The notes under the pieces: model-generated
Database searches by the model: none
What the model saw: only the letters and a program-made list of their open reading frames with translations
Told to the model about the DNA's origin: nothing
Part shown: in pieces, positions 810 to 52,848 of the stretch
How the letters are laid out: each line of letters begins with the position of its first letter
How positions within the stretch are numbered: position 1 is the first letter of the stretch
Program-made: the position numbers and the translations under genes
DNA from: Mobula birostris
Taxonomy: Eukaryota
DNA: 64,000 nt
Assembly (NCBI RefSeq): GCF_030028105.1
Contig: NC_092398.1
Span: 21,090,254 to 21,154,253, forward strand
Direction of reading: 5' to 3'

Positions 810-1847
810 TCACACACTGGCAACCGTCCTGGAGATGGTCTTGATGCGAGTGCTGCAGGCTGACTCTGTCGGCTCCTCAGCAAAGGCCAAACGGAGCGAG
901 CTGGACAGGGAGCGCCGGAAGACCTGGCGGAAGTCACGGCCAGCGAAGACATAGAGGATGGGGTTCAGGGCGCTGTTGAAGGAGGCTAGGCCCACGGACA
1001 ATGTATCCCAGATGAAGGCCACTTGAAGATTGAAGAAAGCCTGAGCTAGGCCGCAGATGTGGTATGGGAGCCAGCAGATGAAAAAGGCAGCAACTACAAA
1101 TGCAATGAGGCGGATAGGCTTCCTGGTCTTGCTGGACTTGGCGAACTTGCCCCTCTGCAGCTTCTGACCGATCAGGAGGTAGCAGGATGCCATGATGAGG
1201 AAGGGGAAGATGAAGGCAAAGAGGGCCCGTGTCACCTCCACCACCTCCCTGGTCCGGTCTCCAAAATATGTCCCGGTGTAGTTAATGGTGCAGAAAATTA
1301 AGCCGAACTCAGAACCTATGTATACCTGCCGTGTCAGCAGAGTGGGCAGGCACATGAGGAAGGCGAGGCCCCAGGCCCCAAGGCAGGCCGCACGCACCCA
1401 AGGCAGGGACCGGTGAGTCTGGGACCAGATGGGTCTAGTGACGGCCAGGCAGCGGTCGATGCTGATCATGGTCAATAGGAAGACACTGGCGTACATGTTG
1501 AGGACAATGGCCGAGGGAAGGAGCTTACAGAGGACATTGTCTCTCGGCCAGGTGTTTACCAAGGCAACTTTAGCCATCTGGAAGGGGAGGGTGAGGCAGT
1601 AGGTCAGGTCTGCCACAGCCAGGTTCAGGAACCACACCGTGTTGACACTCCGTTTCATCTTGAAGCCTGTCACCCAGATGACAGCACCGTTGCCAAGGAC
1701 CCCCAACAGGAAAGTGAGCGTGTAGACAAAGATGGACAAAATGGAGGATGCTGGCAGATGGGTCCTATAATCCACAGGTAAGTTCTCATAGGAGTAGTTT
1801 TCAAAGGGAGTTGTGTTGAAAAAGTAATAATCTCCAGAATAGTCCAT
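810..1847 (-). CDS. C3a/C5a anaphylatoxin chemotactic receptor-like GPCR, copy 1 (subtype A), 345 aa, single coding exon
   Basis: 7TM motifs GN (TM1), [10 protein letters not shown] (TM2), [18 protein letters not shown] (TM3), CWLPYH (TM6), NPILY (TM7). The start MDYSGDYY is in strong context (agcATGg) 6 nt after a polypyrimidine/CAG acceptor. The ORF-track N-terminal 155 aa are intronic low-complexity read-through. Confidence 0.93.
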
Positions 1848-4191: not shown

Positions 4192-4580
4192 CTTGGAGCC
4201 TGCTCCCCCTCTCGATGAAGTTCAGCCTCCCCGTAATCTCCGGCTCACTCCATCCCCCGGGCAGCAGAGAGTTGCACCCAGATCCCAAACCGTTGCGACC
4301 ACCGCAACCAATCCTCGACATGAACCGTGCAGAAACGAACGGAATCGCTGTCCTCCGCCCCCGGGAGAGCAGGGAAGGTGGAACAGGACACTGGTGCGGG
4401 AGAGGTCCGGAGAGCGGGGTGGGTCCCGTCTGAGGCTGACAAACACATCGTTATGATTTCGTCACATTCTTTAATATCTGGTGTCTGGTTTATCAGCTCA
4501 GTTCCTCAAACTGAACTCAGCTGCGGACCGCAAGGCATTGAAGACAAATCACAGCAGTTCCTGAATGAGACAAAGTGTAA
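4192..4580 (-). promoter_or_regulatory. Putative 5' non-coding exon and proximal promoter, copy 1
   Basis: Consensus donor AAG|GTGAGT (intron 1854-4191). Upstream motif cluster: C/EBP-ATF-like ATTTCGTCAC 4456, GATA TGATAA about 4490, PU.1/ETS GAGGAACTG 4499-4507, E-box CAGCTG 4518, second ETS CAGGAACT 4556. TSS not determinable. Confidence 0.55.
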
Positions 4581-4582
4581 AT

Positions 4583-5730
4583 CTCCCATCACATATTCCT
4601 GCGGTGAAGCACAGAGTGAAGCACCCCACCCCGTCCCATCACACTCTCCCGTGGTCAGATACAGAGTGAAGCTCCCTCCACACCCTCCCATCACACACTC
4701 CAGGGGTCAGACACAGAGTGAAGCTCACTCCACACCATCCCATCACACACCCCCCGGGTCAGACACAGAGTGAAGCTCCCCCACACCATCCCATCACACA
4801 TTTCCGGGGTCAGACACAGAGTGAAGCTCCCTCCACACCGTCCCATCACACACTCCTTGGATCAGACACCGTATTAATTTCCCTGTTCACCATCACACCA
4901 CTCATTCCCAGGGTCAAACATAGAGTGAAACCTCCTCCACAGCGTCCCATCACACACACATCTGGGGTCAGACACAGAGTGAAGCTCCCTCCACACTGTC
5001 CCATCACACATATCTGGGGTCAGACACAGAGTGAAGCTCCCTCCACACCCTCCCATCACACACTCCAGGGGTCAGACACAGAGTGAAGCTCCCTCTGTAC
5101 CGTCCCATCACACACTTCTGGGGTCAGACACAGAGTGAAGCTCCCTCCGTACCGTCCCATCACACACTTCTGGGGTCAGACACAGTGTGAAGCTCCCTCC
5201 ACTTCGTCCCATCACACACCCCCTGGGTCAGACACAGAGTGAAGCTCACTCCACACCATCCCATCACACACCCCCCGGGTCAGACACAGAGTGAAGCTCC
5301 CCCACACCATTCCATCACACATTTCCAGGATCAGACACAGAGTGAAGCTCCCTCCACACTGTCCCATCACACACATCTGGGGTCAGACACAGAGTGAAGC
5401 TCCCTCCACACCGTCCCATTACACTCTCCCAGGGTCAGACACAGAGTGAAGCTCCCTCTGCACTGTCCCATCACACACATCTGGGGTCAGACACAGAGTG
5501 AAACCTCCTCCACACCATCCCATCACACACTCCCGGGGTCAGACACAGAGTGAAGCTCCCTCCACCCTGTATATCACACACTCCCGGGGTCAGACACACA
5601 TTAAATCTCCCTTTGCCCTCTCCCAGGGTCAGAAACTGAGTGAAACTCCCTCTGCACGTCTGATCACACACTCCCAGGGTCAGACACAGAGTGAAGCTCC
5701 CTGCACACCATCCCATCACACACTCCCGGT
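4583..5730. repeat. 52-bp minisatellite, about 22 units
   Basis: Consensus approximately GGGGTCAGACACAGAGTGAAGCTCCCTCCACACCGTCCCATCACACACTCCC; GTGAA anchors about 52 bp apart from 4616 to 5691. Confidence 0.95.
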
Positions 5731-6629
5731 GTGGAGCTGGAAGATTAAGTCAGTAGGGTGGAGTGGGGGAGGTTGGTGGTGTGGTAGATATTGACAGCCA
5801 TCAGTCATGAGATACTGCCTGTTTGGCTCAGCTGGGGTCCACCGTTGCGAGTTGTGGTTGTGCACAAGAACTTCGGTTGTTGGAAGAGAGGCCGATCCCT
5901 CTGGGAGCAGAGGAACTCCTGCTGTACTGTTGGGTCGGTGGCAAGAGGTGTCTGTGGAACTGTGAGGCGCAAAGGAGCAAAGACTGTGACACTCCTATCA
6001 TGAACACTTGCTGAACTCCCGTCCTTTCCCAGTTCCCTGCATGTAGAAAAGACAGGCAATACCTTGGACATTTTATTTCAAAAGTCTGGGCACCCCACAG
6101 TTGACGTCGATGAGGAGATCTTCTCCCAATCTCAGGACCCACACAGGAGATCATCACTATCTTTGCCCCTACCCCCCACCCCATGCATCTCCCCTTTCCT
6201 GGGCCGTGGGCTTGTTTTCAAAGCAATCGTTTGTCTTTTTTGCCTGCAAAGCACTCCTGACGTCTGCTTTCATTTTAGTGGTACAGTGTTTGTGGCAAAC
6301 AATATTCATAAGACTATGTTTATATTAGGATATAGGATAAAGATGAAATAAATAAAATATATATTCAAAAAATTCAAAGTGCATTTATTATGAAAAGATG
6401 TATAAATTATACAACCTTGAAATTTGCCTACTTCCAGACAGCCCCAAAGCAAGGAACCCAAAAGAACCCTTTAAAATATAAAGACCAACCCCCAATGGAC
6501 ATAGAAAGAAGGTGTTGTGGGCGGAGGAACCTTGCAAACAATGGAAGTGAGCATTCCAAAACAGATTGAAACCTTGGATCTATGACGGGATCCTGAGTTA
6601 CCCCTATGAACTGTGCTCGATCACCCCTA

Positions 6630-14165: not shown

Positions 14166-15203
14166 TCACACACTGGCAACCGTCCTGGAGATGGTCTTGA
14201 TGCGAGTGCTGCAGGCTGACTCTGTCGGCTCCTCAGCAAAGGCCAAACGGAGCGAGCTGGACAGGGAGCGCCGGAAGACCTGGCGGAAGTCACGGCCAGC
14301 GAAGACATAGAGGATGGGGTTCAGGGCGCTGTTGAAGGAGGCTAGGCCCACGGACAATGTATCCCAGATGAAGGCCACTTGAAGGTTGAAGAAAGCCTGA
14401 GCTAGGCCGCAGATGTGGTATGGGAGCCAGCAGATGAAAAAGGCGGCAACTACAAATGCAATGAGGCGGATAGGCTTCCTGGTCTTGCTGGACTTGGCGA
14501 ACTTGCCCCTCTGCAGCTTCTGGCCGATCAGGAGGTAGCAGGATGCCATGATGAGGAAGGGGAAGATGAAGGCAAAGAGGGCCCGTGTCACCTCCACCAC
14601 CTCCCTGGTCCGGTCTCCAAAATATGTCCCGGTGTAGTTAATGGTGCAGAAAATTAAGCCGAACTCAGAACCTATGTATACCTGCCGTGTCAGCAGAGTG
14701 GGCAGGCACATGAGGAAGGCGAGGCCCCAGGCCCCAAGGCAGGCCGCACGCACCCAAGGCAGGGACCGGTGAGTCTGGGACCAGATGGGTCTAGTGACGG
14801 CCAGGCAGCGGTCGATGCTGATCATGGTCAATAGGAAGACACTGGCGTACATGTTGAGGACAATGGCTGAGGGAAGGAGCTTACAGAGGACATTGTCTCT
14901 CGGCCAGGTGTTTACCAAGGCAACTTTAGCCATCTGAAAGGAGAGGGTGAAGCAGTAGGTCAGATCTGCCACAGCCAGGTTCAGGAACCACACCGTGTTG
15001 ACACTCCGTTTCATCTTGAAGCCTGTCACCCAGATGACAGCACCGTTGCCAGGGACCCCCAACAGGAAAGTGAGCGTGTAGACAAAGATGGACAAAATGG
15101 AGGATGCTGGCAGATGGGTCCTATAATCCACAGGTAAGTTCTCATAGGAGTAGTTTTCAAAGGGAGTTGTGTTGAAAAAGTAATAATCTCCAGAATAGTC
15201 CAT
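14166..15203 (-). CDS. C3a/C5a receptor-like GPCR, copy 2 (subtype A), 345 aa
   Basis: Intact ORF differing from copy 1 at 3 aa (GVPGN vs GVLGN; YCFTLSF vs YCLTLPF). Confidence 0.92.
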   Translation of the reverse strand: MDYSGDYYFFNTTPFENYSYENLPVDYRTHLPASSILSIFVYTLTFLLGVPGNGAVIWVTGFKMKRSVNTVWFLNLAVADLTYCFTLSFQMAKVALVNTWPRDNVLCKLLPSAIVLNMYASVFLLTMISIDRCLAVTRPIWSQTHRSLPWVRAACLGAWGLAFLMCLPTLLTRQVYIGSEFGLIFCTINYTGTYFGDRTREVVEVTRALFAFIFPFLIMASCYLLIGQKLQRGKFAKSSKTRKPIRLIAFVVAAFFICWLPYHICGLAQAFFNLQVAFIWDTLSVGLASFNSALNPILYVFAGRDFRQVFRRSLSSSLRLAFAEEPTESACSTRIKTISRTVASV

Positions 15204-17941: not shown

Positions 17942-19036
17942 CTCCCATCACATATTCCTGCGGTGAAGCACAGAGTGAAGCTCCCCACCCCGTCCCATCA
18001 CACTCTCCCGTGGTCAGATACAGAGTGAAGCTCCCTCCACACCCTCCCATCACACACTCCAGGGGTCAGACACAGAGTGAAGCTCCCTCCACACCCTCCC
18101 ATCACACACTCCAGGGGTCAGACACAGAGTGAAGCTCCCTCTGTACCATCCCATCACACACTTCTGGGGCCAGACACAGAGTGAAGCTCCCTCCGTACCG
18201 TCCCATCACACACTTCTGGGGTCAGACACAGTGCGAAGCTCCCTCCACTTCGTCCCATCACACACCCCCTGGGTCAGACACAGAGTGAAGCTCACTCCAC
18301 ACCATCCCATCACACACCCCCCGGGTCAGACACAGAGTGAAGCTCCCCCACACCATCCCATCACACATTTCCGGGGTCAGACACAGAGTGAAGCTCCCTC
18401 CACACCCTCCCAACACACACTCCAGGGGTCAGACACAGAGTGAAGCTCCCTCTGTACCGTCCCATCACACACTTCTGGGGTCAGACACAGAGTGAAGCTC
18501 CCTCCACACCGTCCCATCACACACTCCTTGGATCAGACACCGTATTAATTTCCCTGTTCACCATCACACCACTCATTCCCAGGGTCAAACATAGAGTGAA
18601 ACCTCCTCCACAGCGTCCCATCACACACATCTGGGATCAGACACAGAGTGAAGCTCCCTCCACACTGTCCCATCACACACATCTGGGGTCAGACACAGAG
18701 TGAAGCTCCCTCCACACCGTCCCATTACACTCTCCCAGGGTCAGACACAGAGTGAAGCTCCCTCTGCACTGTCCCATCACACACATCTGGGGTCAGACAC
18801 AGAGTGAAACCTCCTCCACACCATCCCATCACACACTCCCGGGGTCAGACACAGAGTGAAGCTCCCTCCACCCTGTATATCACACACTCCCGAGGTCAGA
18901 CACACATTAAAGCTCCCTTTGCCCTCTCCCAGGGTCAGAAACTGAGTGAAACTCCCTCTGCACGTCTGATCACACACTCCCAGGGTCAGACACAGAGTGA
19001 AGCTCCCTGCACACCATCCCATCACACACTCCCGGT
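17942..19036. repeat. 52-bp minisatellite, about 21 units
   Basis: Anchors 17975 to 18997. Confidence 0.95.
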
Positions 19037-22000
19037 GTGGAGCTGGAAGATTAAGTCAGTAGGGTGGAGTGGGGGAGGTTGGTGGTGTGGTAGATATTGA
19101 CAGCCATCAGTCATGAGATACTGCCTGTTTGGCTCAGCTGGGGTCCACCGTTGTGAGTTGTGGTTGTGCACAAGAACTTCGGTTGTTGGAAGAGAGGCCG
19201 ATCCCTCTGGGAGCAGAGGAACTCCTGCTGTACTGTTGGGTCGGTGGCAAGAGGTGTCTGTGGAACTGTGAGGCACAAAGGAGCAAAGACTGTGACACTC
19301 CTATCATGAACACTTGCTGAACTCCCGCCCTTTCCCAGTTCCCTGCATGTAGAAAAGACAGGCAATACCTTGGACATTTTATTTCAAAAGTCTGGGCACT
19401 CCACAGTTGACGTCGATGAGGAGATCTTCTCCCAATCTCAGGACCCACACAGGAGATCATCACTATCTTTGCCCCTACCCCCCACCCCATGCATCTCCCC
19501 TTTCCTGGGCCGTGGGCTTGTTTTCAAAGCAATCGTTTGTCTTTTTTGCCTGCAAAGCACTCCTGACGTCTGCTTTCATTTTAGTGGTACAGTGTTTGTG
19601 GCAAACAATATTCATAAGACTATGTTTATATTAGGATATAGGATAAAGATGAAATAAATAAAATATATATTCAAAAAATTCAAAGTGCATTTATTATGAA
19701 AAGATGTATAAATTATACAACCTTGAAATTTGCCTACTTCCAGACAGCCCCAAAGCAAGGAACCCAAAAGAACCCTTTAAAATATAAAGACCAACCCCCA
19801 ATGGACATAGAAAGAAGTGTTGTGGGCGGAGGAACCTTGCAAACAATGGAAGTGAGCATTCCAAAACAGATTGAAACCTTGGATCTATGACGGGATCCTG
19901 AGTTACCCCTATGAACTGTGCTCGATCACCCCTATGAACTCTGCTTTTGAAAAGAGAGAGAGAGAGCTATTTAACACCAACATCTTGTTTTTAAGAGAGA
20001 GAGAGAGAGAGACGAAGACTGCTCACAGTTTGTTTATACTTTCCCAAGGACATCGCCTGCTTGTACGTTCTTACAGACAGAGAAGGGAGGAGCTGTTATT
20101 TGAGAGATATTTGGTACTCAGTACGGAGAGATAAATAGAAGGTCAGATGATAGACCAGAGAGACATGGTTTTGGACACTGAATGAGCTTTGTTGTGCCCA
20201 CAGAAAAAGTGGGTTTTAGAAGATCGTTTAGGTGGATTGATCAGTGGCTCTCTCAGTGTGGAGAAGGTGTGACCGGTGGGGAGGTATTTGTGTGGCCAAC
20301 CCTCACCTGTGTTGATTGCTCCACCACAGAAGAACGGTCTCCTTTGTTGTGGTCACAGACGGTAACATTTAAAGAATTTTGGAGGACAATGGGAAGATCA
20401 ATGGCGTCAGCTCACTTGAAGACTCGAATCTCTCCCTCTCTCTCTCTCCATCACTACTCAACTCAATACAACGAACTGAACTGAACTTTACTCATCATCG
20501 TAAGACTGTATCTATTTACCCCTAGACTTGAAGAAGCTTGGTTTTCATATATTTCCACATTTACTGATATACTTATTTACATATAATCAATGGTAATCTG
20601 TTTGATTTATCTGCATTTATTTTACTGTATTGCGTAGTTACTAATAAATACCACTAGTTAATAGCAATACTGGACTCCAAGGTGTTTTCCATTTCTGCTG
20701 GTTCTTTAAACCCGTCACGGGGTACGTGACCGTTGCCAACCACGGCTGATGAGCCCCATCTTCCCAAAGCAGGTAATGACGGAAAGTGAAACTCCAGTCA
20801 ACAGTTTATTGTTGCCTTTGTGTTTAACAAGTACAATCCACCCCTATGGAGTGAGAGGTGAAGAGAAATCCATTCTCCAGGTGACCCGTTGTGTTGAATT
20901 AGACCATAAAATCATAAGATGCAGGAGCAGAATTAGGCCATTTGAGTCTTCTCAGCCATTCCATCATGGCTGATTTATTATCCCTTCCCATAGTGGACAC
21001 TGTGTGCATATATATAGATATTTTTGATGTATTTATTTATTTTTTGGGGGTTTGGCACGGAACAGACCCTTCCAACCCTTCGAGCTGCGCCGCCCAGCAA
21101 TCCCCTGGTTTAACCCCAGCCTAATCACAAAACAATTTATAATGACCAAACTAAGCTGCTAACTCGCTTATTTGCTTCCCCCCTCCCTCCCACTCCCCAT
21201 TCTCCCCTCTCCCATCCCTCTTCTCTCACATCTCCCTCCCTCTCTCCCTGTCTCCTCCCTCTCCCCCTTCTCTCCATCCCTCCCTTTTCCTCTCCCTCCC
21301 TCCACCTCCACTTCCTCTCACTCCCTCTTCCCCTCCTTTCCTCTCCCCGACTACCTCCCCCTCCTCCCCTCTCCCCTTCTCTCCAACCCTCTCCTTTCCT
21401 CCACTTCCTCTCACTCCCTATTCCCCTTTTTGCCTCTCCATGACTCCCTCCCTCTCCTCTCCTCTGCCCCTTCTCTCCATCCCTCCCCTTCCCTCTCCCT
21501 CCACCTTTCCCTCTCTCATTTCATCTCCCTCCTTCCCCTTCCCTCCACTTCCTCTTCCCCCCTCTCCTCTCCATTCCTCCCTCTCCCCTCCATCCCTGCA
21601 CTTCCCTTTCTCTTTACTTCCTCCACCTCTCCCTAACTCCCCCCACCCTCACAACTGGTTTCCCTGGAAGTCCTATGGGCAGTCAACTGAATGAGAGGAG
21701 GATAGCGATCCGAAGGTATTTATCTTTGGATCAAGAGGAGGGAGACGTCGGTCAGAAGAAACTACAGTCTAATCAAGGACAGGGGAAGCAGTCGGACTAG
21801 TTTTCTCTTTCCTCCCCATTTTGTGGACTCTGAACTGATTCTTGCTCTTGGACAATCTAATCAGAGCAATTGAATGTGGACACAGGGAACTTCAGGTAAA
21901 TCTGAGACCATCCTCAGATGAGAAGGCAAAATGCCAGCCCTACCAAAGAAGTGATCTATAATCTTGTTAGACACTGTCTGGGTTTCCCCATTTAATTGGT

Positions 22001-30212: not shown

Positions 30213-31250
30213 TCACACACTGACAACCGTCCTGGAGATGGTCTTGATGTGGGTGCTGCAGGCTGACTCTGTCGGCTCCTCAGCAAAGGCCAAACGGAGC
30301 GAGCTGGACAGGGAGCGCCGGAAGACCTGGCGGAAGTCACGGCCAGCGAAGACATAGAGGATGGGGTTCAGGGCGCTGTTGAGGGAGGCTAGGCCCATGG
30401 ACAATGTATCCCAGATGAAGGCCACTTGATGTTTGAAGAAAGCCTGAGCTAGGCTGCAGATGTGGTATGGGAGCCAGCAGATGAAAAAGGCAGCAACTAC
30501 AAATGCAATGAGGCGGATAGGCTTCCTGGTCTTGCTGGACTTGGCGAACTTGCCCCTCTGCAGCGTTCGGCCGATCAGGAGGTAGCAGGATGCCATGATG
30601 AGGAAGGGGAAGACGAAGGCAAAAAGGGCCCGTGTCACTTCCACCACCTCCCTGGTCCGGTCTCCAAAATATGTTCCGGTGTAGTTCAAGGTGCAGAAAA
30701 TTAAGCCAAACTCAGAATCTATGTATATCTGCCGTGTCAGCAGAGTGGGCAGGCACATGAGGAAGGCGAGGCTCCAGGCCCCAAGGCAGGCCACACGCAC
30801 CCAAGGCAGGGACCGGTGAATCTGGGACCAAATGGGTCTAGTGACAGCCAGGCAGCGGTCGATGCTGATCATGGTCAATAGGAAGACACTGGCGTACATG
30901 TTGAGGACGATGGCTGAGGGAAGGAGCTTACAGAGGACGTTGTCTCTCGGCCAGGTGTTTTCCAGGGCAATGTTAGCCATCTGGAAGGGGAGGGTGAGGC
31001 AGTAGGTCAGGTCTGCCACAGCCAGGTTCAGGAACCACACCGTGTTGACACTTCGTTTCATCTTGAAGCCTGTCACCCAGATGACAGCACCGTTGCCAGG
31101 GACCCCCAACAGGAAAGTGAGCGTGTAGACAAAGATGGACAAGATGGAGGATGCTGGCAGATGGGTCCCATTATCCATAGTTAAGAACTCATCGGTGTAG
31201 TTTTCAAAGGAAGTAATGTTGAAAATCTCAAAATGTTCAGAACGGGACAT
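30213..31250 (-). CDS. C3a/C5a receptor-like GPCR, copy 3 (subtype B), 345 aa
   Basis: Same 7TM motifs; start MSRSEHFEIF at the position equivalent to copy 1, just after a ttctcttccag acceptor. Confidence 0.93.
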   Translation of the reverse strand: MSRSEHFEIFNITSFENYTDEFLTMDNGTHLPASSILSIFVYTLTFLLGVPGNGAVIWVTGFKMKRSVNTVWFLNLAVADLTYCLTLPFQMANIALENTWPRDNVLCKLLPSAIVLNMYASVFLLTMISIDRCLAVTRPIWSQIHRSLPWVRVACLGAWSLAFLMCLPTLLTRQIYIDSEFGLIFCTLNYTGTYFGDRTREVVEVTRALFAFVFPFLIMASCYLLIGRTLQRGKFAKSSKTRKPIRLIAFVVAAFFICWLPYHICSLAQAFFKHQVAFIWDTLSMGLASLNSALNPILYVFAGRDFRQVFRRSLSSSLRLAFAEEPTESACSTHIKTISRTVVSV

Positions 31251-31259
31251 GCTGAGCCT

Positions 31260-32637
31260 GGAAGAGAAGATATTGTGGAGGTGAGAGAGGTTGGGAGTGG
31301 AGGGAGGGGACAAGAAGAGAGATGGGTGAGGGAAAGAAGAGGGAAGGAGAGAGATGGGTGAGGGGAAAAGGAGGCAGGGAGAGATAGGGAGGGAAAAGAG
31401 GGAAGATAGGGTAAAAAAGAGAGTTTCAAGGGAGAGGAGAGGTAGGTAAAGGTGATGGAGGCCAAAAGGGGGGTGAAGGGAGAAAGGGAGGGGGAGGGGA
31501 ATGAACAACAGAGGAGGAACTGAAACGGCTGGATGAGGAGGTGCGAAGGGAGGATGTGAAGGGAAGAGAGGTGGATGGGTAAGGGGAGGATGGTGGGGCA
31601 GAGGAGACGGGGAAGGGAGGACAGGTGAAGATTGGTGAAGATGACAGGGGGATGAGGAATGAGGACAGTTGAGGAAAGGAAAGAGGAGTGAAATGGGAGA
31701 GGGACGGAGTAGACAAGGTGAGGAGAGGAGAGGAGGGAAGGGGATTATGGAGGGGGAGGGGAAGAGGGAAGAGGAGGGGAAATGGGAAGGAGAGAAGGAT
31801 GAGGAAAGGGGAGGGTGAAGGAGATGGGGATGAGGAGGAAGAAAGAGGGGAGTAGGGGAAGGGAAGAGGAGGAAGAGGAAGAGGAGAAAGGAGAGGGGGT
31901 GGGGAGAACATGAGAGGAAGGGTTGGAGGAGAAAGGGGAGGGGAGGAGGAGGAGGGAAGAGGTGGAGGAGGGAGGGTGAGGATGAGGGAGGAAGAATAAG
32001 AGCGAGGGGAAAAAGGAAGAGGGAGGGGAAGGAGGAGGATGGAATGGAAGGAGGATGAGGGTGTGCGAGGAAGTGGAGTGTGTACAGGGAGGAGGAGGGT
32101 GGAAAGGGAGGAGGTGAAGGAAGAAAGAGGGGAGGAGAAGAGAAGAAGAGGAAGAGAGAAGGTGAGGAGGAGAGAAGGCAAGGAGGAGGGAAGGGGAGGA
32201 GGAAGGAAGGGGAGGTGGAGGAGCAGGGATGGGGATGGGGAGAGGAAAGAGGAGTTAAGCTGGAAGCATTGCGTAGGAGACAGAAATGGAGGGATGAAGG
32301 GTAAAGGGAAGCAGGGAAGGGGTAGATATGGGGTGCGGTGAAGGGAGGTTGCAGTAAGTGTCAGGTACGAGCAAAGAGAAACGGGGACAGAGGATGTGAG
32401 GTGGAGTGGGGGAAGGGTTGAATGCACGAACGGTGGAAAGAATAAGGAAGGAAAAAGGGGAAGGTGAGTGACAAAGGGTGGAGGGGGTAGGGGAAGAGAT
32501 GTCGAGTGCAGAAGGAACAGGGAGGGGAGGGGAATGGGAGTGAGCAGGGAGAGAGATGGGGATTGAACAAGGGAAAGGGGTGAAGGTGGAAAAGAAGGGT
32601 AAGGGAAGGATAAGGGGGAAAGACAGAGAGAATGGAG
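31260..32637. repeat. GA-rich low-complexity tract, unit 3 (shorter)
   Basis: As in unit 1, with internal deletions totalling about 0.6 kb. Confidence 0.95.
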
Positions 32638-32982: not shown

Positions 32983-33375
32983 CTTGGAGCCTGCTCCCCC
33001 TCTCGATGAAGTTCAGCCTCCCCGTAATCTCCGGCTCACTCCGTCCCCCGGGCAGCAGAGAGTTGCACCCAGATCCCAAACCGTTGCGACCACCGCAACC
33101 AATCCTGGACATGAACCGTGCAGAAACGAACGGAATCGCTGTCCTCTGCCCCGGGGAGAGCAGGGAAGGTGGAACAGGACGCTGGTGCGGGAGAGGTCCG
33201 GAGAGTGGAGTGGGTCCCGTCTGAGGCTGACAAACACATCGTTATGATTTCGTCACATTTTTAATCTCTGGTGTCCGGTTTATCAGCTCAGTTCCTCAAA
33301 CTGAACTCAGCTGCGGACGGCAAGGCATTGAAGGGAAACCACAGCAGTTCCTGAATCAGAGAGAAAAGAGTAAAT
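32983..33375 (-). promoter_or_regulatory. Putative 5' non-coding exon and promoter, copy 3
   Basis: Same donor (intron 31258-32982) and motif cluster; RUNX-type AACCACA at 33337-33343. Confidence 0.55.
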
Positions 33376-34380
33376 GTCCCATCACATATTCCTGCAGTGA
33401 AGCACAGAGTGAACCTCCCTCCGCACCGTCCCATCACACACTCCCGGAGTCAGAAACAGAGTGAATCTCCCTCCACACCATCCCATCACATTCTCTCAGG
33501 GTCAGAAACAGAGTGAAGCTCCCTCCGCACAGTCCCATCACACACTCCCGGGGTCAGACACAGAGTGAACCTCCGTCCACACCGTCCCATCACACTCTTC
33601 TGTGGTCAGATACAGAGTGAAACTCCCTCCACACCGTCCCATCACACACTCCCGGAGTCAGACACAGAGTGAATCTCCCTCCGCACCGTCCCATCACACA
33701 CTCCCGGGGTCAGACACAGAGTGAAACTCCCTCCACACTGTCCCATCACACACTCCCGGGGTCAGAAACAGAGTGAACCTCCGTCCACACCGTCCCATCA
33801 CACTCTTCTGTGGTCAGACACAGAGTGAAACTCCCTCCACACCGTCCCATCACACTCTTCTGTGGTCAGATACAGAGTGAAACTCCCTCCACACCGTCCC
33901 ATCACACACTCCCGGAGTCAGAAACAGAGTGAATCTCCCTCCACACCGTCCCATCACATTCTCTCAGGGTCAGACACAGAGTGAAGCTCCCTCCACATAG
34001 TCCCATCACACACTCCCGGGGTCAGACACAGAGTGAACCTCCCTCCGCACCGTCCCATCACACAATCCCGGGGTCGGAAACAGAGTGAAGCTCCCTCCAC
34101 ACCGTCCCATCACACTCTTCTGTGGTCAGATACAGAGTGAAACTCCCTCCACACCGTCCCATCACACACTCCCGGAGTCAGAAACAGAGTGAATCTCCCT
34201 CCACACCGTCCCCTCACATTCTCTCAGGGTCAGACACAGAGTGAAGCTCCCTCCACACAGTCCCATCACACACTCCCGTGGTCAGACACACAGTGAAAGT
34301 CCCTCCACACTGTCAATCACACACTCCCGGGGTTAGACACAGAGTGAAGCTCCTTCCAGACTGTCCCATCACACACTCCT
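33376..34380. repeat. 52-bp minisatellite, about 19 units
   Basis: Anchors 33409 to 34344. Confidence 0.95.
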
Positions 34381-34962
34381 GCTGTGCAGCTGGAAGATTA
34401 AGTCAATGGTTTTGGGAGGGGCGCGAGGTTGGTGGTGTGGGAGATATTCACAGTCATCAGTCACGAGATGCTGCCTGCTTGGCTCAGCTGGGGTCCACCA
34501 TTGCGAGTTGTGGTTGTGTGCAAGAACTTTGGTTGTTGGGAGAGAGGCCGATCCCTCTATGAGCAAAGGAACTCCTGCTGTACTGTTGGGTCGGTGGCAA
34601 GAGATGTCTGTGGAACTGTGAGGTGCAAAGGAGCAAAGACTGTGACACTCCTATCATGAACACTTGCTGAACTCCCGCCCTTTCCCAGTTCCCTGCATGA
34701 AGAAAAAACGGGCAATAACCTGGACATTTTATTTTAAAAGTCTGGGCTGCCCACAGTTGACCTCGGTGAGGAGATCTTCTCCCAAACTCTGGACCCGCAC
34801 AGGAGACCATCACTATCTTTGCCCCTACTCCACACCGCATGCATCTCCCCTTTCCTCGGCTGTGGGCTTGTTTTCAAAGCTATCATTTCTCTTTTTAGCC
34901 TGCAAAGCACTCCTGATGTCTGCTTTAATTTTAGTGCTACACTGTTTGCGGCAAACAATATT

Positions 34963-47200: not shown

Positions 47201-48514
47201 CCTTGTAAACCAGGGGACCCCGCCCATTGTCAATACTCTTCCGAGACTGTCTGCCTGGTGTCAGTGGTCAAATAACCAGGACTTGTGATGTGCAAAAGCT
47301 GCTCGTGTGACCATCCACCACCTGCTCCCACGGCTTCACGTGACCCTGATCGGAGGGTCTACACCTTGCCCAAGGGTGACCTGCAGGCAAGTGGAGGAAA
47401 GGAGCACATTACAGCTCCTTTGGTAGACACGTATCGCCACCCCACCACCCTAGAAACTATGGAAAGTGATAAGCAGTCATCTTTATTCATTTCCATAGAT
47501 GAATAAACATATCTATTAACTCATTTTATTAATTATGTAAAATAATTTTATGTTTAATGAATAAACAGTCCTGGTGAAGGACTCGGCCCAAAAGGTCGAC
47601 TGTTTATTCATCTCCACAGATGCTGCCTGACCTGCTGAGTTCCCTCATTTTGTGTCTGTTGCCCCTGAAGTCTTTCGTTATACTTGTAGCTCACCAGATA
47701 TGGACATGAAAATACACAGGAATTGTGGTGATTTTTAATTGGAACTGTGACAGTCTTGAAATATTTGCAAGCAGTTTATCGAAGGCTCTCTTCTCTAGTT
47801 CACGTCAGATATAACTTCAGTTCACTCCAGCAAATGCTTTTCTGATCCACATTCCAGTGCCTGCTGCCTCTTGTGTCTTCATTCTCCCTCAAGCCAGAGA
47901 GGTGACGGAGCAACTTCAGAAACAATTGGTCAGCCCACAGCTGGAGTACAGTGTCCAGTTCTGGTCTCCACACTACAGGAAGGAGGTGACCACACTGGAA
48001 AGGGTGCAGAGGAGATTCCCCACGACGTTGTCCGGGACAGAGCGTTGCAGTTACGAGGAGAGACCAGAGTCTGTTCTCCCTGGAGCGGGGGAGGCTGTGC
48101 AAGGACCTGATGGAGGGGTCTGGGGTGGGGTGGGGTGCGGGGGGCAAAAATCACGGCCAGATCGAGCTGTCGTATCTGGTCGCCATGGCAATGAGGAAGC
48201 CGGGCCCAGGAGGCAGTAAACTAACTTGGCCTGGACTCACTCAGAGGGTCCTTTGAGCTGGGGCAAGTTTTTTTTGATAGGACGCTATCTGGTGACTGCG
48301 GGGAAATATTCAGTTAGTTGCTCAGGGGATGAACAGACCACTGGCAAATAGGTGGTTGGGGGAGATGGTCAGTGGTTGGCTATCAGCCGAGGATTCTGGT
48401 TCACTAGGCCTTGTAGGACTGGAACAATGGTAGGCAAAGTGGGGGAGGGAATGTGTGTGATAATGGCAGGTCAGAGCAAGGAGCCAGCATTGGCAAGACA
48501 TAGAAAGAGAGCCC

Positions 48515-49552
48515 TCACACACTGACAACCGTCCTGGAGATGGCCTTGATGTGGGTGCTGCAGGCTGACTCTGTCGGCTCCTCAGCAAAGGCCAAACGGA
48601 GCGAGCTGGACAGGGAGCGCCGGAAGACCTGGCGGAAGTCACGGCCAGCGAAGACATAGAGGATGGGGTTCAGGGCGCTGTTGAGGGAGGCTAGGCCCAT
48701 GGACAATGTATCCCAGATGAAGGCCACTTGATGTTTGAAGAAAGCCTGAGCTAGGCTGCAGATGTGGTATGGGAGCCAGCAGATGAAAAAGGCAGCAACT
48801 ACAAATGCAATGAGGCGGATAGGCTTCCTGGTCTTGCTGGACTTGGCGAACTTGCCCCTCTGCAGCATTCGGCCGATCAGGAGGTAGCAGGATGCCATGA
48901 TGAGGAAGGGGAAGACGAAGGCAAAAAGGGCCCGTGTCACTTCCACCACCTCCCTGGTCCGGTCTCCAAAATATGTTCCGGTGTAGTTCAAGGTGCAGAA
49001 AATTAAGCCGAACTCAGAATCTATGTATATCTGCCGTGTCAGCAGAGTGGGCAGGCACATGAGGAAGGCGAGGCTCCAGGCCCCAAGGCAGGCCACACGC
49101 ACCCAAGGCAGGGACCGGTGAATCTGGGACCAAATGGGTCTAGTGACAGCCAGGCAGCGGTCGATGCTGATCATGGTCAATAGGAAGACACTGGCGTACA
49201 TGTTGAGGACGATGGCTGAGGGAAGGAGCTTACAGAGGACGTTGTCTCTCGGCCAGGTGTTTTCCAGGGCAATGTTAGCCATCTGGAAGGGGAGGGTGAG
49301 GCAGTAGGTCAGGTCTGCCACAGCCAGGTTCAGGAACCACACCGTGTTGACACTTCGTTTCATCTTGAAGCCTGTCACCCAGATGACAGCACCGTTGCCA
49401 GGGACCCCCAACAGGAAAGTGAGCGTGTAGACAAAGATGGACAAGATGGAGGATGCTGGCAGATGGGTCCCATTATCCATAGTTAAGAACTCATCGGTGT
49501 AGTTTTCAAAGGAAGTAATGTTGAAAATCTCAAAATATTCAGAACAGGACAT
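48515..49552 (-). CDS. C3a/C5a receptor-like GPCR, copy 4 (subtype B), 345 aa
   Basis: Intact ORF starting MSCSEYFEIF; 4 aa differences from copy 3 (R3C, H6Y, GRTL/GRML, IKTI/IKAI). Confidence 0.93.
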   Translation of the reverse strand: MSCSEYFEIFNITSFENYTDEFLTMDNGTHLPASSILSIFVYTLTFLLGVPGNGAVIWVTGFKMKRSVNTVWFLNLAVADLTYCLTLPFQMANIALENTWPRDNVLCKLLPSAIVLNMYASVFLLTMISIDRCLAVTRPIWSQIHRSLPWVRVACLGAWSLAFLMCLPTLLTRQIYIDSEFGLIFCTLNYTGTYFGDRTREVVEVTRALFAFVFPFLIMASCYLLIGRMLQRGKFAKSSKTRKPIRLIAFVVAAFFICWLPYHICSLAQAFFKHQVAFIWDTLSMGLASLNSALNPILYVFAGRDFRQVFRRSLSSSLRLAFAEEPTESACSTHIKAISRTVVSV

Positions 49553-51679: not shown

Positions 51680-52266
51680 GTCCCATCACATATTCCTGCA
51701 GTGAAGCACAGAGTGAACCTCCCTCCGCACCGTCCCATCACACACTCCCGGAGTCGGAAACAGAGTGAATCTCCCTCCACACCATCCCATCACACACTCC
51801 CCGGGTCAGACACAGAGTGAACCTCCCTCCGCACCGTCCCATCACACAATCCCGGGGTCAGAAACAGTGAACCTCCGTCCACACCGTCCCATCACACTCT
51901 TCTGTGGTCAGATACAGAGTGAAACTCCCTCCACACCGTCCCATCACACAATCCCGGGGTCAGAAACTGAGTGAATCTCCCTCCACACCGTTCCATCACA
52001 CTCTTCTGTGGTCAGATACAGAGTGAAACTCCCTCCACACCGTCCCATCACACACTCCCGGAGTCAGAAACAGAGTGAATCTCCCTCCACACCGTCCCCT
52101 CACATTCTCTCAGGGTCAGACACAGAGTGAAACTCCCTCCACACAGTCCCATCACACACTCCCGTGGTCAGACACACAGTGAAACTCCCTCCACACTGTC
52201 AATCACACACTCCCGGGGTTAGACACAGAGTGAAGCTCCCTCCAGACTGTCCCATCACACACTCCT
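51680..52266. repeat. 52-bp minisatellite, about 11 units
   Basis: Anchors 51713 to 52230. Confidence 0.95.
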
Positions 52267-52848
52267 GGTGTGCAGCTGGAAGATTAAGTCAATGGTTTGG
52301 GGAGGGGCGCAAGGTTGGTGGTGTGGGAGATATTCACAGTCATCAGTCACGAGATGCTGCCTGTTTGGCTCAGCTGGGGTCCACCATTGCGAGTTGTGGT
52401 TGTGTGCAAGAACTTTGGTTGTTGGGAGAGAGGCCGATCCCTCTGGGAGCAGAGGAACTCCTGCTGTACTGTTGGGTCGGTGGCAAGAGATGTCTGTGGA
52501 ACTGTGAGGTGCAAAGGAGCAAAGACTGTGACACTCCTATCATGAACACTTGCTGAACTCCCGCCCTTTCCCAGTTCCTTGCATGAAGAAAAAACGGGCA
52601 ATAACCTGGACATTTTATTTTAAAAGTCTGGGCTGCCCACAGTTGACCTCGGTGAGGAGATCTTCTCCCAAACTCTGGACCCGCACAGGAGACCATCACT
52701 ATCTTTGCCCCTACTCCACACCGCATGCATCTCCCCTTTCCTCAGCTGTGGGCTTGTTTTCAAAGCTATCATTTCTCTTTTTAGCCTGCAAAGCACTCCT
52801 GATGTCTGCTTTAATTTTAGTGCTACACTGTTTGCGGCAAACAATATT

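Follow-up and report, generated by a model that had tools for sequence, protein, structure and literature searches.

Duplicated anaphylatoxin-receptor-like genes of Mobula birostris differ mainly in an N-terminal segment that was probably shaped by positive selection

The human C5a receptor C5aR1 combines a short extracellular loop ECL2 with a tyrosine-rich, acidic N-terminus, a two-site layout in which sulfated Y11 and Y14 support the binding of C5a; the sulfated tyrosines make no direct contact to the ligand in current structures (PMC10518620). Human C3AR1 carries an ECL2 of about 172 aa with a sulfated Y174, and teleost C3aRs lack such a loop and have a short ECL2 (PMC8977587). In C3aR, the residues R340, Y393 and D417 hold the C-terminal arginine of C3a, and the N-terminus of the human receptor adds little to C3a binding and helps to exclude C5a (PMC10518620). 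The FPRs of primates and carnivores belong to the same chemoattractant GPCR neighbourhood and show selection on the N-terminus and the extracellular loops (bioRxiv 2021.08.02.454796). Finally, exon 5 of the red/green opsins, treated in the model of Teshima and Innan, forms a narrow divergence peak next to an intron that has been homogenised, and within the peak orthologues are closer to each other than paralogues are (PMC3924837). Both selection acting on the extracellular side of immune GPCRs that have been duplicated and a divergence peak surrounded by conversion have good precedents. A literature search yielded no paper on the mobulid receptor cluster described here, and the main text of a mobulid genome preprint, whose supplements may include the present genes among families that were expanded or selected, contains neither ‘C3a’ nor ‘anaphylatoxin’ (bioRxiv 2026.10.27.761883). 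As far as searched, the pattern is already known, and the mobulid case is new within that literature, clean and testable.

The window analysed here, a 64-kb stretch of M. birostris DNA, contains four units of about 13-18 kb in tandem, set among LINE fragments. Every unit carries a minus-strand gene whose product is a class A GPCR of 345 aa. The receptors fall into subtypes A and B according to their N-termini:

810..1847, minus strand: CDS of copy 1, subtype A; N-terminus at 1764-1847 with six tyrosines and two sequons
14166..15203, minus strand: CDS of copy 2, subtype A; N-terminus at 15120-15203, the same as that of copy 1
30213..31250, minus strand: CDS of copy 3 (subtype B), encoding a 345-aa class A GPCR from the C3aR/C5aR1 group
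31167..31250, minus strand: codons 1-28 of copy 3, the divergent N-terminal ectodomain; one tyrosine, three N-glycan sequons and six acidic residues (residues 1-30)
31251..31423, minus strand: 5' leader, splice acceptor (AG at 31259-31258) and intron end of copy 3; zero fixed A/B substitutions
32983..33129, minus strand: 5' exon of copy 3 with GT donor, not in the CDS frame, its extent being inferred from a 145-letter loose contig end of which 30 letters were seen; homologous exons end at 4192, 17552 and 51287
48515..49552, minus strand: CDS of copy 4, subtype B; N-terminus at 49469-49552, 5 nt from copy 3

LINE fragments excepted, the open reading frames of at least 150 aa in the window revealed no gene family besides the receptors. 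The sister units (copies 1/2 and copies 3/4) show about 1.5-2.1% substitutions along 2-12 kb and are probably true duplicates, the alternative being a duplication of haplotypes in the assembly. A contig from sequencing run X2 was identical to copy 3 over 30346-31259 (0 mismatched letters) and joined the coding exon via a GT-AG intron to an exon 1.7 kb upstream, which ends at 32983. Therefore, copy 3 is spliced and very probably expressed, the run being taken as RNA only by guess. A longer N-terminus encoded from exon 1 was rejected, as no in-frame upstream ATG reading through to the receptor occurred in the 261 nt examined in any of the four copies. An ATG in exon 1 opens a separate ORF (32983-33112 plus 31251-31257 in copy 3), which in copies 1, 3 and 4 extends across the start of the receptor CDS in another frame and in copy 2 terminates early; its frame is not the same in A as in B, owing to a single-nucleotide difference downstream of the splice acceptor. 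This upstream ORF could dampen translation of the receptor.

The Pfam match to PF00001 (7tm_1; E 1.5e-52) identified the product as a class A GPCR. The best solved relatives were C3aR (E 1e-76), chains of which took the top eight places, followed by C5aR1 (1e-61 to 1e-64), and the closest named proteins, among the best 120 of 641 listed, were ‘C3a anaphylatoxin chemotactic receptor-like’ proteins of Mobula, Hemitrygon, Hypanus and Pristis. In phylogenetic trees, C3aR, C5aR1 and the ray receptors were split from chemerin-receptor-like proteins at 100/99 (19 rows) and, in a tree of 33 rows with long branches, at 60/82, too low to resolve this split, and the receptors of cartilaginous fish formed one clade (96/98 and 96/97, respectively). 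This clade joined tetrapod C3aR at 79/89, the C5aR1 alternative not being rejected (p-AU 0.237). An earlier note on this DNA had reasoned from C5aR1; an identity of the gene with C5aR1 is not supported, as the best solved relatives are C3aRs, the trees do not separate a C3aR from a C5aR1 placement and the N-terminus of human C3aR adds little to the binding of C3a. By its sequence, the receptor is a member of the anaphylatoxin-receptor group with a C5aR1-like build and a C3aR-like score, and we assign it to neither orthologue.

Within the ray receptor, R207, Y262 and D281 align with the arginine-holding R340, Y393 and D417 of C3aR and are, together with R173, invariant in 22 of 22 ray proteins; the residues of the transmembrane ligand pocket are unchanged between the subtypes. 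In contrast to human C3AR1, the ray ECL2 measures only about 30 aa and lacks the long sulfated loop of mammals, the N-terminus is longer, rich in tyrosines and acidic, and the gene is tandemly multiplied. The short ECL2 and the N-terminus of subtype A and of a third subtype, C, in which a tyrosine cluster predicted to be sulfated lies amid acidic residues, correspond to the two-site layout of C5aR1; however, the ray receptor scores lower against C5aR1, and the tyrosine cluster is nearly absent from subtype B. A structure model with seven long helices (mean pLDDT 44.6), used for helix boundaries only, placed the start of the first helix at residue 33 with low confidence, so codons 1-28 would comprise nearly the whole ectodomain, a unit that can be defined beforehand. 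Among rays in general, the C3aR-like genes have undergone a large expansion (P0005-P0146), which includes a divergent class of about 310-320 aa, many of them in Pristis, with tyrosine-poor N-termini and a shortened ECL2. Sharks had few C3aR-like genes per species among the matches found.

Outside the 28-residue tip, the receptor copies are about 94% alike. Between copies 1 and 3, codons 1-28 differ at 21 nt and 16 aa, and none of the 12 codons for conserved residues differs. As the earlier note had stated, all 21 differences fall into amino-acid-changing codons, but they are not purely non-synonymous: pathway counting yielded 20 non-synonymous changes and one synonymous change, because codon 12 requires one synonymous step. 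The remaining counts of that note were reproduced, namely about 20 amino acid sites in the rest of the receptor (codons 29-345: 36 nt, 20 aa and 14 synonymous-only codons), four amino acid differences between copies 3 and 4 with two of them in the N-terminus, and six tyrosines and two sequons in A versus one or two tyrosines and three sequons in B. The 21 differences are distributed 13/6/2 over the codon positions, and 10 of them are located in codons 2-9. Despite the loss of tyrosines, the negative charge is similar, with five to six acidic residues in B and five in A. Half of the 20 body differences lie in extracellular loop regions (67 of 317 residues; P=0.003, with loop boundaries chosen after the data had been seen). 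Two other explanations were rejected. The ungapped alignment was best at three gap costs, which argues against indels or slippage as the origin of B, and an overlapping reading frame behind the first-position bias would encounter a stop in B (+1 frame) and stops in the four copies (+2 frame); the entry of the exon 1 ORFs into different frames in A and B also counts against it.

Non-coding DNA differs between A and B by 5.8% (422 of 7598 sites; kappa 3.2), and this neutral divergence predicts about 4.7 differences in the tract, compared to the 21 observed. In none of 2000 neutral simulations of the CDS did any 28-codon window reach 21 differences, the maximum being 17. For codons 2-28, dN was 0.42-0.47, compared to 0.03 in the body, and dS was 0.05-0.07 in both; a conversion tract from an older paralogue with proportionate synonymous divergence, which the earlier note had named as the outcome that would speak against it, is thus not the case. 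The synonymous deficit of the tract gave Fisher P values of 0.039, 0.015 and 0.006 at transition weights of 1, 2 and 4. When omega was set to 1 and 21 differences were given (4000 simulations), the lack of synonymous-only codons reached P=0.040, only moderate if taken alone, while the low number of third-position changes (two or fewer, third positions differing at 2 of 27) and the high number of transversions (14 or more) reached P=0.007 and P=0.015, both statistics having been picked after the data were seen. The ratio of transitions to transversions was 7:14 in the tract and 256:166 in non-coding DNA (P=0.02). Over neutral tract divergences from 0.058 to 0.30, the joint P was at most 0.002. 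Positive selection on the N-terminus, as proposed earlier, is therefore supported by the excess of amino acid change and by the poor fit of neutral drift at any tested age of the tract. We regard it as likely that positive selection shaped the N-termini of A and B, judged from pairwise counts on one A/B contrast rather than from a codon model.

As a control, 120 C5aR1 sequences of birds and reptiles were compared, of which 1573 pairs, not independent of each other, passed the length filters. In these receptors, the rate of N-terminal change is about four times that of the body. In pairs with a body difference of 5-10% (n=35), the N-termini differed by 35% on average, and one of the 35 reached the 57% of the A/B pair; among stingray paralogue pairs of the same class, none of 43 did so (mean 25%, maximum 39%). 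According to these comparisons, a fast N-terminus is normal for the receptor family, and the A/B pair is at the extreme. The bird and reptile N-termini (P0078, P0147-P0265) may be under selection, too.

Directly next to the divergent segment, the subtypes are nearly identical. The intron end, described as such before, showed 0 substitutions at 167 aligned sites, compared to a background of 5.6%, and two 1-nt indels (P 7e-5 at the background rate, before correction for scanning). Across 2.7 kb of alignment, the longest stretch in which A and B have no fixed difference measures 177 nt and ends at the start codon. Splice constraint can explain only part of this identity, and the stretch at 31251..31423 appears to be a conversion tract that was homogenised up to the start codon. 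In copy 4, the 3' flank (about 47790-48290) is nearer to subtype A than to copy 3 and likely is a conversion or crossover tract. Within the body, 14 of 17 informative sites group by subtype and three (43, 175 and 176) by species, indicating that conversion has been occasional there and not complete. Exchange between the genes, as read from these alignments, is partial and stops at the divergent segment. The same pattern has been described for the red/green opsins (PMC3924837); compared to opsin exon 5, the peak in the ray is almost wholly non-synonymous and comprises three subtypes.

The third subtype resembles A in codons 2-12 and B in codons 19-27, and all three subtypes occur in the Mobula proteins used for comparison:

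P0122 and P0125: subtype C of M. birostris
P0121 and P0123: subtype C of M. hypostoma
P0126: subtype A of M. hypostoma
P0003: subtype B of M. hypostoma

In a tree of the N-termini, which is based on few columns, A (95/92) and B (97/97) each grouped across species, and 14 N-terminal sites favoured the subtype tree and one the species tree. Orthologous N-termini of the two species differ at 2 of 28 residues in A, 5 of 28 in B and 1-5 of 28 in C, compared to 16 of 28 between A and B, while the body distances are alike (orthologues 13-20, A/B 19-21). The split between M. hypostoma and the Atlantic manta is put at about 20 My ago (bioRxiv 2026.10.27.761883), and 14 of the 16 A/B differences are common to M. 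hypostoma. On this basis, the divergence is read as an old burst that has been conserved since; an ongoing arms race with a pathogen is a poor fit to so little change between orthologues, which is low in A and moderate in B across the two species. In this respect, the ray differs from the FPRs, where the signal is recurrent between species, whereas here it lies between paralogues and mostly before the species split. To polarise the 16 differences, we read the site tables against ten proteins of stingrays and one of a sawfish: B carries the derived state at ten sites (3, 5, 6, 7, 8, 9, 19, 22, 24 and 25) and A at three (12, 14 and 28), and three sites are ambiguous (2, 20 and 27). Subtype B has lost the ancestral Tyr3 and Tyr8 and gained Glu5 and Glu8, and Asn27, which creates the third sequon, is common to B and C. 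At least three tyrosines within residues 1-30 were found in all ten stingray proteins examined, compared to one or two in B. As far as these alignments go, the divergence is lopsided and, given that subtype C exists, took at least two steps.

As to function, we tentatively favour, at not quite even odds, that selection after the duplication in mobulids reshaped the N-terminus of B such that it differs in preference for, or affinity to, the anaphylatoxins while the pocket was kept, the ligand being inferred. Because the short ECL2 has no sulfated loop, a second docking site would most naturally be the N-terminus. The tyrosine cluster of A and C would be sulfated and, following the two-site model of C5aR1, would dock a cationic anaphylatoxin by its core, and B would dock via carboxylates instead. 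B might then bind a different type of ligand (C3a, C4a or C5a), or the same type at another affinity, and selection on the predicted docking arm in the mobulid lineage would keep conversion, which homogenises the adjoining intron, from erasing the A/B difference. Sharks have one to two C3, at least two C4 hits and one C5 (PMC7768046), so that several ligands would be available. By analogy, the small contribution of the C3aR N-terminus to C3a binding counts against altered docking. Moreover, a loss of tyrosines with the charge being kept fits escape from an antagonist equally well.

Such an escape, the possible but less probable explanation, would have freed B from a sulfotyrosine-recognising, CHIPS-like protein of a parasite or pathogen: B would still dock the anaphylatoxin, while the antagonist would bind A and C only. 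Sulfotyrosines raise the affinity of CHIPS to N-terminal peptides of C5aR about 1000-fold (PMC9372746), and the related FPRs are positively selected in their extracellular parts, which has been tied to bacterial inhibitors (bioRxiv 2021.08.02.454796). The composition of B, with its acidic residues kept, one or two tyrosines in place of six and an extra sequon, would fit an escape variant, and its orthologues differ more (5/28) than those of A (2/28). However, an arms race predicts repeated change between species that is fastest in the targeted subtype, and A has changed at only 2 of 28 residues over about 20 My. To our knowledge, no such antagonist is known for rays. A bolder version that spans docking change and escape, and that we consider rather unlikely, would make B a tyrosine-free anaphylatoxin receptor that docks by carboxylates and glycans next to sulfotyrosine-dependent sisters and a recombinant intermediate, all on one core; such a set could divide C3a, C4a and C5a among its members, possibly with a dedicated C4a receptor, or evade a parasite protein that reads sulfotyrosines.

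We consider a non-adaptive origin improbable. Here, the N-terminus would be unconstrained and simply older than the rest, as conversion would have reset body and flanks. Conversion is indeed visible in the 177-nt run at the start codon and in copy 4, where the 3' flank is A-like. Three sites of the body sort by species, N-termini of the family run about fourfold ahead of the body, and the synonymous count alone gives just P=0.04. Nonetheless, an older tract would not be expected to have a dS equal to the background, the joint P stays at or below 0.002 for neutral divergences of 0.058-0.30, and the third-position count is itself hard to obtain under omega=1 (2 of 27, P=0.007). In addition, drift would not preserve the subtype motifs across species, and neutral conversion would have no reason to end at the start codon.

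That a single copying event brought in codons 2-12 of B from other DNA, such as a distant paralogue, in place of selected point mutations is very unlikely: the clustering of 10 of the 21 differences in codons 2-9, the presence of Ser2 and Glu5 in the distant paralogues P0040 and P0145 and the mosaic appearance of subtype C, by which exchange inside the N-terminal segment occurs, would be in accordance with it, but P0040 and P0145 share no B residue from 6 to 9, third positions are the same in seven of codons 2-9, which is unexpected for a distant donor, a gapped alignment never beats the ungapped one, the match of a divergent X9 contig to B is confined to the first five coding bases and the sequence upstream of them (joint at 31246), and a search with residues 1-45 of B, at low sensitivity, returned four proteins of six candidates, all of Mobula A/B types. 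Within the window, no donor for these codons was found beyond the four copies and two LINE matches at chance level (21/33). Dating by contig 22 of run X9 (27 differences over 674 nt from copy 3, A/B 28) was dropped, because its Gln228 and Gly266 match no single M. hypostoma protein.

The three natural N-termini on a near-identical core represent a ready experiment on how far the N-terminus controls anaphylatoxin selectivity, a point left open by the structures, and the cluster is relevant to the question which ligand the C3aR/C5aR1 group of jawed vertebrates had ancestrally. Several features of the individual copies were observed in addition. Codon 3 encodes Cys in copy 4 (49544-49546) and in B of M. 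hypostoma (P0003, which also has Cys22), and Arg in copy 3; in subtype B, Cys3 is a possible site for an N-terminal disulfide or a dimer. At codon 51 (1695-1697), copy 1 has Leu in place of the Pro of nearly all relatives, and at codons 85 and 88, copy 2 has Phe and Ser in place of their Leu and Pro; judged by these residues, one or both subtype A copies may be impaired. Finally, a tandem repeat of about 52 bp is located upstream of exon 1 in every unit (4584-5732, 17943-19038, 33375-34381 and 51680-52271), with differing copy numbers.
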